Positions 355 through 50,392 of a stretch of 64,000 nt of DNA are shown piece after piece. The first letter of the stretch is position 1. Each line of letters opens with the position of its first letter. The DNA lies in assembly GCF_988242995.1 (NCBI RefSeq), contig NZ_OZ547043.1. One strand, given 5' to 3'. Under the pieces are notes generated by a model that was given only the letters and a program-made list of their open reading frames with translations, had not been told where the DNA came from and did not search any database. The translations under genes were made by a program, and so were the position numbers.

Positions 355-1707
355 ATGTTGAAATCCCCCCTGTTCTGGAAAATGACCACCCTGTTTGGTG
401 CCGTATTGCTGTTGTTGATTCCGATAATGCTGATTCGGCAGGTGATTGTCGAACGTGCCGATTACCGTAGCGATGTGGAAGATGCGATTCGCCAAAGTAC
501 CAGCGGGCCGCAAAAACTCGTTGGGCCGCTTATCGCTATTCCTGTGACCGAGCTTTATACGGTACAGGAAGAGGATAAAACCGTGGAGCGGAAACGAAGT
601 TTTATCCATTTTTGGTTACCTGAGTCATTGATGGTTGATGGCAATCAGAACGTGGAAGAACGCAAGATAGGGATTTATACCGGTCAGGTCTGGCACAGTG
701 ATTTAACGCTAAAAGCCGATTTCGATGTTTCGCGTCTTAGCGAACTCGACGCGCCAAATATCACCTTTGGCAAGCCATTTATTGTGATTAGCGTCGGGGA
801 TGCGCGTGGTATTGGTGTGGTGAAAGCGCCTGAAGTTAACGGAACGGCGCTGACCATTGAACCCGGCACCGGGTTAGAGCAAGGCGGGCAGGGCGTGCAT
901 ATCCCTTTACCCGAAGGGGACTGGCGGAAGCAGAACCTGAAGCTGAATATGGCACTGAATTTAAGCGGTACCGGCGATCTTTCTGTGGTGCCTGCGGGGC
1001 GTAATAGCGAAATGACCTTAACCAGCAACTGGCCGCATCCCAGTTTTTTAGGTGATTTTCTACCAGCCAAACGGGAAGTTAGTGAGTCAGGTTTTCAGGC
1101 GCAATGGCAAAGCAGCTGGTTTGCTAATAATCTCGGTGAGCGTTTTGCTTCAGGCAATGATACCGGCTGGGAAAACTTCCCCGCGTTTAGCGTTGCAGTG
1201 ACGACGCCAGCCGATCAATACCAATTAACTGACCGGGCGACTAAGTATGCCATTCTGCTGATTGCGCTGACTTTTATGGCGTTCTTTGTTTTTGAAACGC
1301 TCACCGCGCAACGCTTACACCCAATGCAATATTTGCTGGTGGGGCTTTCATTAGTGATGTTTTATTTGCTCTTGCTGGCGCTTTCTGAACATACCGGTTT
1401 TACCGTGGCATGGATAATCGCCAGTCTGATTGGGGCGTTAATGAACGGTATTTATTTGCAGGCGGTATTGAAAGGTTGGCGCAACAGCATGTTGTTTACC
1501 CTCGCGCTGTTGCTGCTGGATGGTGTGATGTGGGGACTGCTCAACTCTGCCGATAGCGCGCTGTTGTTGGGAACCAGTGTGCTGGTGGTGGCGCTGGCCG
1601 GCATGATGTTTGTGACCCGTAATATCGACTGGTATGCGTTTTCACTGCCGAAAATGAAAGCCAGTAAAGAAGTTACAACGGACGATGAATTACGTATCTG
1701 GAAATAA
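355..1707 (+). CDS. creD: Inner membrane protein CreD
   Basis: 450-aa ORF with multiple hydrophobic segments; position between creC and arcA matches the E. coli cre operon. Confidence 0.9.
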   Translation: MLKSPLFWKMTTLFGAVLLLLIPIMLIRQVIVERADYRSDVEDAIRQSTSGPQKLVGPLIAIPVTELYTVQEEDKTVERKRSFIHFWLPESLMVDGNQNVEERKIGIYTGQVWHSDLTLKADFDVSRLSELDAPNITFGKPFIVISVGDARGIGVVKAPEVNGTALTIEPGTGLEQGGQGVHIPLPEGDWRKQNLKLNMALNLSGTGDLSVVPAGRNSEMTLTSNWPHPSFLGDFLPAKREVSESGFQAQWQSSWFANNLGERFASGNDTGWENFPAFSVAVTTPADQYQLTDRATKYAILLIALTFMAFFVFETLTAQRLHPMQYLLVGLSLVMFYLLLLALSEHTGFTVAWIIASLIGALMNGIYLQAVLKGWRNSMLFTLALLLLDGVMWGLLNSADSALLLGTSVLVVALAGMMFVTRNIDWYAFSLPKMKASKEVTTDDELRIWK

Positions 1708-1719
1708 GGTTGAAAAATA

Positions 1720-1750
1720 AAAACGGCGCTAAAAAGCGCCGTTTTTTTGA
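1720..1750. terminator. Bidirectional rho-independent terminator between convergent creD and arcA
   Basis: GC hairpin ACGGCGCT-AAAAA-AGCGCCGT flanked by an A-run upstream and a T-run downstream (aaaaataaaaacggcgctaaaaagcgccgtttttttga). Confidence 0.6.
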
Positions 1751-1765
1751 CGGTGGTAAAGCCGA

Positions 1766-2482
1766 TTAATCTTCCAGATCACCGCAGAAGCGATAACCTT
1801 CACCGTGAATGGTGGCGATGATTTCCGGCGTATCCGGCGTAGATTCGAAATGTTTACGAATACGGCGGATCGTCACGTCTACAGTACGGTCGTGTGGTTT
1901 CAGCTCACGGCCGGTCATTTTCTTCAGCAGTTCAGCACGAGACTGAATTTTGCCTGGGTTTTCACAGAAGTGAAGCATGGCGCGGAACTCACTGCGCGGC
2001 AGCTTGTACTGCTCGCCATCAGGGCCGATCAAAGAACGGCTGTTGATGTCCAGTTCCCAACCATTGAACTTGTAGCTTTCAACGCTACGACGTTCTTCGC
2101 TGACAGTACCCAGATTCATGGTACGGGACAGCAGGTTGCGTGCACGAATCGTCAGTTCACGCGGGTTGAACGGTTTGGTGATGTAGTCATCTGCACCGAT
2201 TTCGAGGCCGAGAATTTTATCGACTTCGTTGTCACGGCCAGTCAGGAACATCAACGCAACATTCGCCTGCTCGCGCAGTTCACGCGCTAACAGAAGACCG
2301 TTCTTACCCGGCAGATTGATATCCATGATCACCAGGTTGATGTCATATTCAGAGAGGATCTGATGCATTTCCGCGCCATCTGTCGCTTCGAAAACATCAT
2401 AGCCTTCCGCTTCGAAAATACTTTTCAACGTGTTGCGTGTTACCAACTCGTCTTCAACGATAAGAATGTGCGGGGTCTGCAT
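1766..2482 (-). CDS. arcA: Two-component response regulator ArcA (OmpR family)
   Basis: 238-aa ORF starting [30 protein letters not shown]... with a receiver domain and winged-helix C-terminus; recognised as ArcA. Confidence 0.95.
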
Positions 2483-2577
2483 GTTTGCTACCTAAATTGC
2501 CAACTAAATCGAAACAGGAAGTACAAAAGTCCCTGACCTGCCTGATGCATGCTGCAAATTAACATGATCGGCGTAAC

Positions 2578-2718
2578 ATGACTAAAGTACGTAATTGCGT
2601 TCTTGATGCACTTTCCATCAACGTCAACAACATCATTAGCTTGGTCGTGGGTACTTTCCCTCAGGACCCGACAGTGTCAAAAACGGCTGTCATCCTAACC
2701 ATTTTAACAGCAACATAA
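2578..2718 (+). CDS. yjjY: Small uncharacterised ORF (46 aa) at the position of K-12 yjjY
   Basis: ATG at 2578 with an in-frame stop after 46 codons; position relative to arcA and lasT matches annotated yjjY. No independent coding evidence. Confidence 0.3.
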   Translation: MTKVRNCVLDALSINVNNIISLVVGTFPQDPTVSKTAVILTILTAT

Positions 2719-3117
2719 CAGGCTAAGAGGGGCCGGACACCCAATAAAACTACGCTTCGTTGACATATATCAAGTTCAATTGTAGCACGTTAACAGTTTG
2801 ATGAAATCATCGTATCTAAATGCTAGCTTTCGTCACATTATTTTAATAATCCAACTAGTTGCATCATACAACTAATAAACGTGGTGAATCCAATTGTCGA
2901 GATTTATTTTTTATAAAATTATCCTAAGTAAACAGAAGGATATGTAGCATTTTTTAACAATTCAACCGTTAGTACAGTCAGGAAATAGTTTAGCCTTTTT
3001 TAAGCTAAGTAAAGGGCTTTTTCTGCGACTTACGTTAAGAATTTGTAAATTCGCACCGCGTAATAAGTTGACAGTGATCACCCTGTTCGCGGTCATTTGG
3101 TCAAGAAGAGTGGCAAT

Positions 3118-3804
3118 ATGCGTATAACGATTATTCTGGTCGCACCCGCCAGAGCAGAAAATATTGGGGCAGCGGCGCGGGCAATGAAAACGATGGGGTT
3201 TAGCGAACTGCGGATTGTCGATAGTCAGGCACATCTGGAGCCAGCCACTCGCTGGGTCGCACATGGATCTGGTGATATTATTGATAATATTAAAGTTTTC
3301 CCGACGCTGGCTGAATCGTTACACGATGTCGATTTCACTGTCGCCACCACTGCGCGCAGTCGGGCGAAATATCATTACTACGCCACGCCAGTAGAACTGG
3401 TGCCGCTGTTAGAGGAAAAATCTTCATGGATGAGCCATGCCGCGCTGGTGTTTGGTCGCGAAGATTCCGGGCTGACTAACGAAGAGTTAGCGTTGGCTGA
3501 CGTTCTTACTGGTGTGCCGATGGTGGCGGATTATCCTTCGCTCAATCTGGGGCAGGCGGTGATGGTCTATTGCTATCAATTAGCAACATTAATACAACAA
3601 CCGACGAAAAGTGACACAACGGCAGACCAACATCAACTGCAAGCTTTACGCGAACGAGCCATGGCATTGCTGACGACTCTGGCAGTGGCAGATGACATAA
3701 AACTGGTCGACTGGTTACAACAACGCCTGGGGCTTTTAGAGCAACGAGACACGGCAATGTTGCACCGTTTGCTGCATGATATTGAAAAAAATATCACCAA
3801 ATAA
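3118..3804 (+). CDS. lasT: SpoU/TrmH-family RNA methyltransferase (YjtD/LasT)
   Basis: ORF-track ORF 3097..3804; start chosen at the internal Met (MRITIILVAPARAENIGAAARAMKTMGF...) to give the 228-aa K-12 length. Confidence 0.8.
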   Translation: MRITIILVAPARAENIGAAARAMKTMGFSELRIVDSQAHLEPATRWVAHGSGDIIDNIKVFPTLAESLHDVDFTVATTARSRAKYHYYATPVELVPLLEEKSSWMSHAALVFGREDSGLTNEELALADVLTGVPMVADYPSLNLGQAVMVYCYQLATLIQQPTKSDTTADQHQLQALRERAMALLTTLAVADDIKLVDWLQQRLGLLEQRDTAMLHRLLHDIEKNITK

Positions 3805-4014
3805 AAAACGCCTTAGTAAGTATTTTTCAGCTTTTCATTCTGACTGCAACGGGCAATATGTCTCTGTGTGGATTAAAAAAAGAGTGTCTGATAGCAGCTT
3901 CTGAACTGGTTACCTGCCGTGAGTAAATTAAAATTTTATTGACTTAGGTCACTAAATACTTTAACCAATATAGGCATAGCGCACAGACAGATAAAAATTA
4001 CAGAGTACACAACA

Positions 4015-4083
<69 letters not shown>

Positions 4084-4105
4084 CGCGTACAGGAAACACA
4101 GAAAA

Positions 4106-4138
4106 AAGCCCGCACCTGACAGTGCGGGCTTTTTTTTC
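4106..4138 (+). terminator. thr attenuator (rho-independent terminator of the leader transcript)
   Basis: AGCCCGCACCTGACAGTGCGGGCT hairpin followed by a run of 8 T, between thrL and thrA. Confidence 0.85.
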
Positions 4139-4163
4139 GACCAAAGGTAACGAGGTAACAACC

Positions 4164-6626
4164 ATGCGAGTGTTGAAGTTCGGCGGTACATCAGTGGCAA
4201 ATGCAGAACGTTTTCTGCGGGTTGCCGATATTCTGGAAAGCAATGCCAGGCAGGGGCAGGTGGCCACCGTCCTCTCTGCCCCCGCCAAAATCACCAACCA
4301 CCTGGTGGCGATGATTGAAAAAACCATTAGCGGCCAGGATGCTTTACCCAATATCAGCGATGCCGAACGTATTTTTGCCGAACTTCTGACGGGACTCGCC
4401 GCCGCCCAGCCGGGATTCCCGCTGGCGCAATTGAAAACTTTCGTCGACCAGGAATTTGCTCAAATAAAACATGTCCTGCATGGCATTAGTTTGTTAGGGC
4501 AGTGCCCGGATAGCATTAACGCTGCGCTGATTTGCCGTGGCGAGAAAATGTCGATCGCCATTATGGCCGGCGTATTAGAAGCGCGCGGTCACAACGTTAC
4601 CGTTATCGATCCGGTCGAAAAACTGCTGGCAGTGGGGCATTACCTCGAATCTACTGTCGATATTGCAGAGTCCACCCGCCGTATTGCGGCAAGTCGTATT
4701 CCGGCTGATCACATGGTGCTGATGGCAGGTTTCACCGCCGGTAATGAAAAAGGCGAACTGGTGGTACTTGGACGCAACGGTTCCGACTACTCCGCGGCGG
4801 TGCTGGCTGCCTGTTTACGCGCCGATTGTTGCGAGATTTGGACGGACGTTGACGGGGTATATACCTGCGACCCGCGTCAGGTGCCCGATGCGAGGTTGTT
4901 GAAATCGATGTCCTACCAGGAAGCGATGGAGCTTTCTTACTTCGGCGCTAAAGTTCTTCACCCCCGCACCATTACCCCCATCGCCCAGTTCCAGATCCCG
5001 TGCCTGATTAAAAATACCGGAAATCCTCAAGCTCCAGGTACGCTAATTGGTGCCAGCCGTGATGAAGACGAATTACCGGTCAAGGGCATTTCCAATCTGA
5101 ATAACATGGCAATGTTCAGCGTTTCCGGCCCGGGGATGAAAGGAATGGTCGGCATGGCGGCGCGCGTCTTTGCTGCAATGTCACGCGCCCGTATTTCCGT
5201 GGTGCTGATTACGCAATCATCTTCCGAATACAGTATCAGTTTCTGCGTTCCGCAAAGCGACTGTGTGCGAGCTGAACGGGCAATGCAGGAAGAGTTCTAC
5301 CTGGAACTGAAAGAAGGCTTACTGGAGCCGCTGGCGGTGACGGAACGGCTGGCCATTATCTCGGTGGTAGGTGATGGTATGCGCACCTTGCGTGGGATCT
5401 CGGCGAAATTCTTTGCCGCGCTGGCCCGCGCCAATATCAACATTGTCGCCATTGCTCAGGGATCTTCTGAACGCTCAATCTCTGTCGTGGTAAATAACGA
5501 TGATGCGACCACTGGCGTGCGCGTTACTCATCAGATGCTGTTCAATACCGATCAGGTTATCGAAGTGTTTGTGATTGGCGTCGGTGGCGTTGGCGGTGCG
5601 CTGCTGGAGCAACTGAAGCGTCAGCAAAGCTGGTTGAAGAATAAACATATCGACTTACGTGTCTGCGGTGTTGCTAACTCGAAGGCTCTGCTCACCAATG
5701 TGCATGGCCTTAATCTGGAAAACTGGCAGGAAGAACTTGCACAAGCCAAAGAGCCGTTTAATCTCGGGCGCTTAATTCGCCTCGTGAAAGAATATCATCT
5801 GCTGAACCCGGTCATTGTTGACTGCACCTCCAGCCAGGCAGTGGCGGATCAATATGCCGACTTCCTGCGCGAAGGTTTCCACGTTGTCACGCCGAATAAA
5901 AAGGCCAACACCTCGTCGATGGATTACTACCATCAGTTGCGTTATGCGGCGGAAAAATCGCGACGTAAATTCCTCTATGACACCAACGTTGGGGCTGGAT
6001 TACCGGTTATTGAGAACCTGCAAAATCTGCTCAATGCAGGTGATGAATTGATGAAGTTCTCCGGCATTCTTTCAGGTTCGCTTTCTTATATCTTCGGCAA
6101 GTTAGACGAAGGCATGAGTTTCTCCGAGGCGACTACGCTGGCGCGGGAAATGGGTTATACCGAACCGGACCCGCGAGATGATCTTTCTGGTATGGATGTG
6201 GCGCGTAAACTATTGATCCTCGCTCGTGAAACGGGACGTGAACTGGAGTTGGCGGATATTGAAATTGAACCAGTGCTGCCCGCAGAGTTTAACGCCGAGG
6301 GTGATGTTGCCGCTTTTATGGCGAATCTGTCACAGCTCGACGATCTCTTTGCCGCGCGCGTGGCGAAGGCCCGTGATGAAGGAAAAGTTTTGCGCTATGT
6401 TGGCAATATTGATGAAGATGGTGTCTGCCGCGTGAAGATTGCCGAAGTGGATGGTAATGATCCGCTGTTCAAAGTGAAAAATGGCGAAAACGCCCTGGCC
6501 TTTTATAGCCACTATTATCAGCCGCTGCCGTTGGTACTGCGCGGATATGGTGCGGGCAATGACGTTACCGCTGCCGGTGTCTTTGCCGATCTGCTACGTA
6601 CCCTCTCATGGAAGTTAGGAGTCTGA
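4164..6626 (+). CDS. thrA: Bifunctional aspartokinase I / homoserine dehydrogenase I
   Basis: ORF-track ORF 4122..6626; canonical start [33 protein letters not shown] at 4164 gives 820 aa. Confidence 0.95.
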
Positions 6627-36551: not shown

Positions 36552-37388
<837 letters not shown>

Positions 37389-37794
37389 CCACAAAATGTT
37401 TATGATGATGCAAAAATAACACATTTAATTTATTGATTATAAAGGGCTTTAATTTTTAGCCCTTTTATTTTTGGTATTATGTTTTTAAATTTTATGTAAG
37501 TGCTAAAAATTACACGTTTTGTCTTCTGTTTTTGTTGTTTTAATGTAAATTTTGACCATCTGGTCCACTTTTTTCTGCTCATTTTTATTTCATGCAATCT
37601 TCTTGCTGCGCAAGCGTTTTCCAGAACATGTTATATGATCTTTTTGTCGCTTAATGCCTGTAAAACATGCATGAGCCACAAAATAATATAAAAAATCCCG
37701 CCATTAAGTTGACTTTTAGCGCCCATATCTCCAGAATGCCGCCGTTTGCCAGAAATTCGTCGGTAAGCAGATTTGCATTGATTTACGTCATCAT

Positions 37795-48627: not shown

Positions 48628-50145
<1,518 letters not shown>

Positions 50146-50392
50146 TTAATTCCACTGTGAAAACGAATATTTATTTTGCGTTCCCGTTTGTTTTATTTTT
50201 GTTAACATTTAATATAATTATTATTAACCTCGTGGACGCGTTAATGGCTAACTCATAATGGGTATTCAATTGGCTGCGTTCTGTGATGTTAGTCACGGTT
50301 TTTTATCGGGTAAAAACAGGGCGTCTTTGTGTAAATATTAATTGTTTATCAATGTGATAAGTTTGATTGTGAGTAAAAAAATAGCATCTGAC

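Follow-up and report, generated by a model that had tools for sequence, protein, structure and literature searches.

The gap between arcA and yjtD in Escherichia coli as a partly conserved arcA control region with yjjY as a probably incidental antisense reading frame

Several global regulators, among them rpoS, csgD and flhDC, have long regulated 5' leaders, and overlapping divergent 5' untranslated regions make up the antisense arrangements of the excludon type. The arcA gene of E. coli, which codes for an oxygen-response regulator, has its own well-described control region. According to the summary of Compan & Touati 1994 relayed in PMC5748706, arcA has an upstream region of 530 bp with five sigma-70 promoters, and a single FNR box at -284 through which one arcA promoter is activated and another repressed. 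The control of arcA from multiple promoters is thus already known and is textbook biology. In this study we placed the published elements on the sequence of the gap between arcA and its divergent neighbour, compared this gap between genera and families, and asked what the small reading frame yjjY within it represents.

Promoters and regulatory sites in the gap

The window analysed here is a stretch of 64,000 nucleotides from E. coli (NCBI RefSeq assembly GCF_988242995.1, contig NZ_OZ547043.1) with the gene order creC-creD-arcA(-)-yjjY(+)-yjtD/lasT(+)-thrL-thrA. Positions 2483-3117 are exactly the 635-bp gap, start codon to start codon, between the divergent genes arcA and yjtD, the latter also named lasT. 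Of 5,426 complete E. coli genomes, 5,424 contain the 2.2 kb around it with at least 95% identity, and arcA, yjjY and yjtD are annotated there. A preliminary description of this DNA had reported a long AT-rich gap between arcA and lasT, and its location and base composition are borne out (GC 0.384, against 0.504 for the entire window). The limits given there for the AT-rich part, about 2700 to 3000, need to be shifted: GC is 0.329 over 2700-3000 and 0.309 over 2750-3050, the truly AT-rich part is that at about 2750-3050, and 2750-3049 lies at the 1.8th percentile among 300-bp windows. The AT-rich string quoted as an example occupies positions 2838-2881. The same description had rightly placed yjjY inside the gap, but called the stretch non-coding and overlooked ytjE (b4824), a second ORF annotated in K-12. 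The features of the gap and of the flanking genes are listed in Table 1.

Table 1. Features in and around the arcA-yjtD gap, in window coordinates, with sequence identity between genera where a segment was compared.
Feature	Position	Strand	Basis	Identity between genera
arcA CDS, response regulator ArcA	1766..2482	-	ORF list; NCBIfam NF008378, 503 bits; annotation	85-91%
arcA translation-initiation region, predicted hairpin of Shine-Dalgarno GGUAGC with AUGCAGACC	2474..2492	-	helix 8 of consensus fold	
Near-invariant arcA-proximal promoter/leader segment	2483..2810	-	alignment of Enterobacteriaceae genera	82-99%
Segment between arcA and yjjY	2483-2577			90-98%
Long-range helix GUAC..AGUC (2590..2580) with GACU..GUAC (2531..2521)	2521..2590	-	consensus fold	
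yjjY, 46-codon ATG ORF	2578..2718	+	matches K-12 b4402, NCBIfam NF052365	91-99%
Leader hairpin UUGAUG-gaaagug-CAUCAA	2603..2621	-	conserved; compensatory G-C to A-U in Pantoea	
FNR-activated arcA promoter core: -10 TAGGAT (2697..2692), start G2684	2684..2697	-	published TSS and conserved block	
ArcA-type direct repeat TGTTAtgttgcTGTTA, 11-bp phasing	2705..2720	-	covers -35 region of 2684 promoter	
Segment beyond yjjY	2719-2800			82-96%
G/C-rich island AGAGGGGCCGGACACCC, between ArcA repeat and FNR box	2725..2745	.	varies between genera	
FNR box TTGACATATATCAA	2760-2773	.	FNR consensus search, one mismatch	
Extended -10 TGcTACAAT, upstream arcA promoter	2779..2787	-	sequence; fits 2771 start	
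Segment of distal half	2801-2893			60-83%
AT-rich distal half, poorly conserved	2811..3117	.	alignment	39-83%
ytjE (b4824), 17-codon TTG-start ORF in yjtD leader	2894-2947	+	K-12 annotation	
Segment next to yjtD	2948-3117			39-67%
yjtD/lasT, SpoU-family RNA methyltransferase	3118..3804	+	ORF list, profile matches	

When transferred to the window, the published starts on the arcA strand fall at 2684, 2748, 2771 and about 2991. The first of these is the FNR-activated start at K-12 position 4640508 (NC_000913.3), which the Reg-Seq supplement (PMC7567609) credits to Compan & Touati; relative to it, the Reg-Seq entry gives an FNR activator footprint at -99 to -63 (window 2747-2783) and a CpxR repressor site at -64 to -56 (window 2740-2748). 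Table S1 of PMC7373196 holds the other three, namely a minus-strand start of Thomason (4638618(-), window 2771), a minus-strand start of Dornenburg at window 2748 that is based on one read and has a poor -10, and the overlap of divergent transcripts of Conway at 2762-2991, which implies that yjtD starts near 2762 and that the distal arcA start is near 2991. The centre of the FNR box lies 284.5 nt from the arcA ATG and so agrees with the published -284. The multiple promoters proposed in the preliminary description are therefore upheld, both by the five promoters of the literature summary and by the positions of these four starts and of the FNR box. A scan for consensus promoters found no site on the arcA strand in the gap and a single plus-strand match, at 2559-2588; such a scan is uninformative for activator-dependent promoters.

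From these positions a simple mechanism can be proposed. Transcription of arcA runs leftward from several sigma-70 promoters that together span about 510 bp, and every arcA mRNA therefore has a leader between 200 and 500 nt long. The FNR box, about 82 bp upstream of start 2684, activates transcription there, while the same box covers start 2771 of the TGcTACAAT promoter and would repress it; since this start falls within the box, the TGcTACAAT promoter is probably the FNR-repressed one, as judged from its position and the literature summary. The repeat on the -35 region of the 2684 promoter is a putative ArcA site by its resemblance to the known ArcA consensus, and may serve autoregulation. 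On the other strand yjtD would be read rightward from about 2762, overlapping the 5' end of arcA and giving rise to double-stranded RNA.

Conservation of the gap and the coding status of yjjY

The gap was aligned from arcA to yjtD in Escherichia, Citrobacter, Salmonella, Enterobacter, Klebsiella, Raoultella and Siccibacter, seven genera in all of which the ArcA protein is identical. The first set of genera was fetched by way of YjjY-like proteins and is thereby biased toward conservation, and a set ascertained by a DNA pattern agrees with it. For the latter a metagenome scan with TTGAYNNNNATCAAHNNNNATTGTAGCACGT, a pattern of the FNR box and -10 element, gave 69 contigs, on 60 of which the arcA start is present, with an ArcA 91-97% identical to that of E. 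coli over the recovered sequence. Labels assigned to the contigs by exact ArcA match were Yersinia, Serratia, Hafnia, Pantoea, Winslowiella, Dickeya, Morganella and further Enterobacteriaceae. Among the matches listed by a contig search based on ArcA most were unrelated response regulators, with L002-L009 usable, and an exact look-up of ArcA returned E. coli places only.

The two halves of the gap differ widely. Over the arcA-proximal 330 bp (2483-2810, yjjY included) identity is mostly higher than in the arcA coding sequence itself. The distal half, 2811-3117, contains the distal arcA start (about 2991) and the 5' leader of yjtD (from about 2762 onward), and is conserved only in short islands at 2928-2941, 2951-2959, 2981-2994 and 3043-3067. 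Outside these islands the AT-rich half is typical intergenic DNA that evolves fast. The AT-rich tract as the core of the regulatory element, the emphasis of the preliminary description, is not supported: this tract is the least conserved part, and it is the less AT-rich 2483-2810 that hardly varies. Horizontal transfer as a source of the conservation was considered and rejected: identity falls sharply at the arcA ATG and synonymous sites vary from there on, which excludes a recent transfer.

Beyond the Enterobacteriaceae the conservation is concentrated in blocks. Read in the arcA sense, those shared across families of the Enterobacterales are the TGcTACAAT -10 with the FNR box; the ArcA repeat with GTTAGGAT; UGUUGUUGACGU with the hairpin UUGAUG-N7-CAUCAA; GUAC..AGUC and, some 50 nt on, its partner GACU..GUAC; and GUUGGCAAuuUUAGGUAGCaaACAUG. 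The repeat TGTTA-N6-TGTTA at 2705-2720 is invariant across families in the alignment, the GTTAGGAT block belonging to the 2684 promoter is likewise kept across families, and the TGcTACAAT -10 is kept as far as Photorhabdus. In the Enterobacterales loci with the arcA start (60 of 69) the FNR box is found upstream of arcA at a distance of 243-316 nt, or of 427 nt in a single locus, and in Photorhabdus and Vibrio both the FNR box and the ArcA repeat stand at distances from the ATG like those in E. coli, the repeat at 228 nt.

The yjjY frame lies within the most conserved part of the gap. Practically every E. coli genome has it as an annotated gene, and UniRef calls its product an "inner membrane protein"; it scores 96.5 bits against the NCBIfam equivalog model NF052365, for which the cut-off is 70; and it has homologues of 83-96% identity in Klebsiella, Enterobacter, Raoultella, Salmonella and Siccibacter. 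The frame is open in 12 of the 12 genus-level sequences first compared, with an insertion of 6 nt in Salmonella that keeps the frame, and is intact in one Yersinia contig. Double-stranded RNA captured over the ORF (PMC7373196) implies that plus-strand RNA is made there. These points speak for a genuine stand-alone gene for a small protein, whose coding constraint would then add to the conservation of the region. The pattern of substitution is nevertheless not that of a coding sequence. In the genus alignment the variable columns at codon positions 1, 2 and 3 number 21, 5 and 186 in arcA and 106, 63 and 212 in yjtD, but 9, 8 and 4 in yjjY (P <= 0.004 if at least half of the changes are expected at third positions). 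A repeat on the pattern-ascertained loci, in which yjjY was ignored for ascertainment, gave 9, 10 and 9, with 16 codons changed in amino acid and 2 changed only silently. The substitutions are thus mostly non-synonymous, and often radical (V to D, S to F, I to N, C to G). Constraint that the arcA leader imposes on the same DNA might hide synonymous variation in yjjY. The flanking segment 2483-2577, which is not part of the ORF, is conserved equally well.

Other properties of yjjY point in the same direction. We found no Shine-Dalgarno sequence for it better than in random sequence, since pairing with the anti-Shine-Dalgarno yields -1.7 kcal/mol where random sequence averages -2.4, and Enterobacter has GTG in place of the start ATG. 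At least three Enterobacteriaceae lineages whose leaders are 90-95% identical to that of E. coli (L134; L118; L119/121/125) carry a frameshift in yjjY. The frame is lost in most other families, being broken in Serratia and absent from Hafnia, Pantoea, Winslowiella, Dickeya, Morganella and Photorhabdus. No Pfam domain was matched in YjjY, and those parts of the peptide that are conserved coincide with elements of the opposite strand: MTKVR is the translation of one arm of a leader helix, VLDALSINVNN that of the leader hairpin plus UGUUGUUGAC, and ILTxLTA with the stop that of the ArcA repeat and the -10, the repeat read on the plus strand providing the final codons and the stop of yjjY. The literature searched contained no ribosome-profiling or tagging result for yjjY, either way, and the Stringer supplement, which has no entry for it, is not informative. 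The effects of insertions in yjjY on fitness have been ascribed to arcA (PMC12956098). Taken together, these observations make it unlikely that yjjY is a stand-alone gene.

The preliminary description had also doubted that yjjY stands alone, and this doubt was well placed; the reason offered, that it might be a leader or regulatory peptide, was not, and what speaks against the gene is its lack of coding-type evolution. A peptide of that kind, the translation of which would control arcA or the downstream yjtD/lasT, is suggested by the presence of a small ORF in a long regulatory gap, by its being on the same strand as yjtD, and by the proximity of a true attenuator, thrL, 1.3 kb away in the same window. 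It is nonetheless very improbable. Since yjjY is antisense to the arcA mRNA it cannot be an arcA leader peptide. With regard to yjtD, the ORF ends 400 nt short of that gene and upstream of its reported start at about 2762, no terminator-like hairpin follows it (a terminator scan of 2718-3117 found no terminator-like site), and it has neither a run of regulatory codons nor a Shine-Dalgarno sequence. The small ORF in the yjtD leader that is translated is ytjE rather than yjjY, as reported for E. coli in bioRxiv 10.1101/2021.07.02.450978, and ytjE shows no conservation between genera. Photorhabdus, moreover, has the control blocks of arcA while lacking both yjjY and yjtD, and as stated above the frame is shifted or missing in many relatives.

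We therefore consider it likely that the gap is a region for the transcriptional and post-transcriptional control of arcA, back-to-back with yjtD, and that yjjY is an incidental frame antisense to it. Judged by its sequence, yjjY is most probably not a functional protein gene, and is presumably untranslated. Its frame would simply happen to be open opposite constrained arcA control DNA, and the apparent conservation of a YjjY protein would be a by-product of selection on the arcA promoters and leader. With only about 21 variable columns the survival of the ORF by chance is plausible, though not proven. If yjjY is an incidental ORF, then NF052365 models non-coding conservation.

The arcA leader and overlapping transcripts

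A consensus fold of the arcA leader from 25 sequences (RNAalifold) has 37 pairs, and 96.9% of the cells of the alignment pair as predicted against 29-50% when the partners are slid, the structure having been derived from the same alignment on which the pairing was tested. Changes on both sides of the helix, that is compensatory ones, are found at 8 of the 37 pairs, a number reached by 0 of 500 shuffles, and stem mainly from one split, that of the Erwiniaceae from the rest. Cells with G-U number 103 and those with A-C 5, and the consensus fold is more stable in the sense (-19.9 kcal/mol) than in the antisense (-13.5 kcal/mol); both results favour the sense strand. Within the fold, pair 169-177 of the hairpin at 2603-2621 is GC in 17 sequences and AU in 6. 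The long-range helix (helices 6 and 7) has 4 pairs changed on both sides and encloses a domain that varies in a family-specific manner. The pairs of the translation-initiation hairpin (helix 8) are all invariant and thus have no support from covariation. Folding of single sequences, on either strand, gave no unusual stability (z about 0; z = 0.14), so that the leader has no globally stable structure. A scan of 1600-4300 against Rfam 15 found no match in the gap at E <= 1, the hits being confined to the Thr leader at 4019-4138 and to noise of the terminator type. Two minus-strand upstream ORFs, 2636->2559 and 2565->2488, were considered as conserved coding sequences and rejected, being without a Shine-Dalgarno sequence or codon periodicity and broken in L093 and Siccibacter; the second stops within the Shine-Dalgarno sequence of arcA.

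A conserved structure of the arcA leader is thereby suggested, not established, and the helices may contribute to the control of arcA. The proximal 200-290 nt would contain a few conserved helices together with an invariant ribosome-binding region. Tentatively, this part of the leader might be a structured cis-regulatory RNA, so far undescribed and common to the Enterobacterales, that gates arcA translation or stability by means of the hairpin 2603-2621, the helix 2580-2590/2521-2531 and the sequestration of the Shine-Dalgarno sequence and AUG, possibly through an sRNA like ArcZ or an antisense transcript. In Erwinia, ArcZ is reported to activate an arcA translational fusion (PMC6895013). Pairing of ArcZ with the arcA leader of E. 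coli was examined and rejected, the duplex energy being no better than with shuffled leaders. If a structured RNA of this kind does exist, it would have left its footprint in the extreme nucleotide conservation seen in the Enterobacteriaceae and in what is taken for a "YjjY protein family".

RNA from both strands of the gap, and double-stranded RNA, are on record in published data. Clusters of dsRNA captured with p19 cover window 2524-2748 in exponential and 2523-2944 in stationary phase, spanning the whole yjjY coding sequence, and the dsRNA locus of Lybecker corresponds to window 2397-2977 (both in PMC7373196, as is the Conway overlap). It could be that the plus-strand transcript over yjjY is a cis-antisense RNA which pairs with the arcA leader to form a substrate of RNase III and in this way tunes arcA mRNA or its translation. 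Such a divergent 5' overlap, similar to that of an excludon, could be an additional layer compatible with the arcA control region set out above, and selection on two strands would help to account for the near-invariance within the Enterobacteriaceae. The orientation dependence of transposon effects in yjjY (PMC12956098) also fits. There is, on the other hand, no mapped plus-strand promoter upstream of yjjY, and the sole consensus match on that strand, at 2559-2588, would start within the ORF; the consensus structure of the antisense strand is the weaker and has no conservation pattern of its own; and dsRNA is common at divergent genes in the same data set (PMC7373196). Antisense control of arcA is accordingly a possible but rather doubtful addition.

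The importance of the gap in vivo is apparent from studies of adaptation. ArcA is a master regulator of respiratory metabolism, and mutations in the gap are repeatedly selected since they change arcA expression. Transposon insertions in "yjjY" were enriched in a laboratory selection, which the authors attributed to altered regulation of arcA, and the same report (PMC12956098) gives an IS186 insertion from laboratory evolution at position 4640557, or window 2733, which falls in the variable G/C-rich island that separates the ArcA repeat from the FNR box. IS and 4-bp insertions in the yjjY-yjtD interval are described as adaptive in the mouse gut, where they raise anaerobic arcA expression (PMC5094792, PMC7064181). 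If yjjY is probably no gene, phenotypes of yjjY "knock-outs" should be reinterpreted as those of lesions in the arcA promoters or leader, and the annotation and NCBIfam family propagated through thousands of genomes become doubtful. The conservation map can also guide the choice of bases to mutate in the arcA leader.

Relation to described systems

Attenuators of the thrL type (Rfam RF00506, window 4019-4138) resemble yjjY in that a small ORF lies in the regulatory gap ahead of a gene. Unlike them, yjjY is on the wrong strand for arcA and lacks a Shine-Dalgarno sequence, a codon run, a terminator/antiterminator and conservation at the level of the peptide. The likeness to excludons, of which E. 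coli examples are given in PMC7373196, is that the arcA and yjtD transcripts overlap by at least about 230 nt and that dsRNA, a substrate of RNase III, is found across yjjY. This likeness is one of overlap only and is perhaps incidental; reciprocal regulation of arcA and yjtD is only putative.

With rpoS, csgD and flhDC the arcA leader has in common its length of several hundred nucleotides, its multiple promoters and conserved helices near the ribosome-binding site, and the likeness extends to post-transcriptional control, reported for arcA through ArcZ in Erwinia (PMC6895013). It differs in that the sRNA site or switch in E. coli arcA is only a candidate, the ArcZ duplex test having stayed at the level of shuffled leaders.

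The closest system is the arcA region of Compan & Touati 1994 (Mol Microbiol 11:955, via PMC5748706 and PMC7567609), which is the identical locus and, as relayed there, nothing different in kind: it shares the length of about 530 bp, the several sigma-70 promoters, the dual-acting FNR box at -284 and a putative involvement of ArcA. What is added to this picture is a map of conservation across families, the placing of the ArcA-type repeat and the TAGGAT -10 within the yjjY frame, and the evidence on yjjY itself. Two additions are of use: yjjY is probably no gene, and the strongly constrained and possibly structured part is the arcA-proximal leader, not the AT-rich tract.

Promoter layout and leader of arcA

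In E. coli the FNR box and the ArcA-type repeat lie 284.5 and 238 nt from arcA, and in Photorhabdus 274.5 and 228 nt. The same layout was found in Vibrio bivalvicida (L009:2200-2500), where a perfect FNR box stands 264.5 nt and the ArcA-type repeat 228 nt upstream of the gene. That this arrangement is common to Vibrio, Photorhabdus and E. coli indicates that the arcA promoter architecture is older than the Enterobacterales. Photorhabdus caribbeanensis (L003) has neither yjtD nor yjjY, and thrL/thrA directly adjoins its arcA upstream region.

The sole variable patch within the conserved arcA leader is a G/C-rich island, AGAGGGGCCGGACACCC. An IS186 insertion selected in an evolution experiment (K-12 position 4640557, window position 2733) falls inside this island (PMC12956098), which may be an IS186-type target. 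A strong hairpin in the creD-arcA gap, flanked by T-runs on either side, is probably a bidirectional terminator serving these convergent genes. In 300-bp windows, GC of 0.33 or less also occurs at 22341-22870, 25691-26000, 26701-28920, 37261-37740 and 50081-50650, with the minimum for the whole stretch (0.257) starting at 28461.

Features in and around the arcA upstream region
Feature	Coordinates	Strand	Description
Hairpin	1719-1746		creD-arcA gap
uORF	2636->2559	-	25 codons; arcA mRNA strand; within 2488-2636
uORF	2565->2488	-	25 codons; overlaps preceding uORF; arcA mRNA strand; within 2488-2636
G/C-rich island	2725-2745		arcA leader
ytjE (b4824)	2894-2947	+	17-codon ORF, TTG start, in yjtD leader; K-12 annotation
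Threonine operon leader	4019-4138	+	Rfam RF00506, 121 bits

Short reading frames in the arcA and yjtD leaders

The two uORFs on the arcA strand are joined at ATGTTAA, and the TAG stop of the one that starts at 2565 lies within the arcA Shine-Dalgarno sequence. Neither has a Shine-Dalgarno sequence of its own or a coding signature, and Siccibacter and an Enterobacter relative each carry a disruption in one or other of them. A translated sORF at this site has been reported in Salmonella (RIBOSS preprint). Translation of ytjE has also been reported (bioRxiv 10.1101/2021.07.02.450978); its identity between genera is only 43-70%, and no codon periodicity was found in a genus-level comparison. Despite this low overall identity, its final bases, GTAAACAGAAGGATAT, form a conserved island.

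yjjY variants and the threonine leader

In one Salmonella locus (L102:2001-2147) a tandem duplication of 6 nt (ATCATT), which falls within both the arcA leader and the yjjY frame, gives an ORF of 48 codons, and further Salmonella variants have 43 and 46 codons (P0011, P0012). Variants among the YjjY-like protein entries P0001-P0028 include frameshifted and stop-loss forms (P0001, P0014, P0015). Nucleotide-level conservation of the arcA leader seems to be what underlies both the NCBIfam equivalog model NF052365 ("YjjY family") and hundreds of entries in databases. The threonine operon leader, in contrast to yjjY, is a genuine leader-peptide attenuator.
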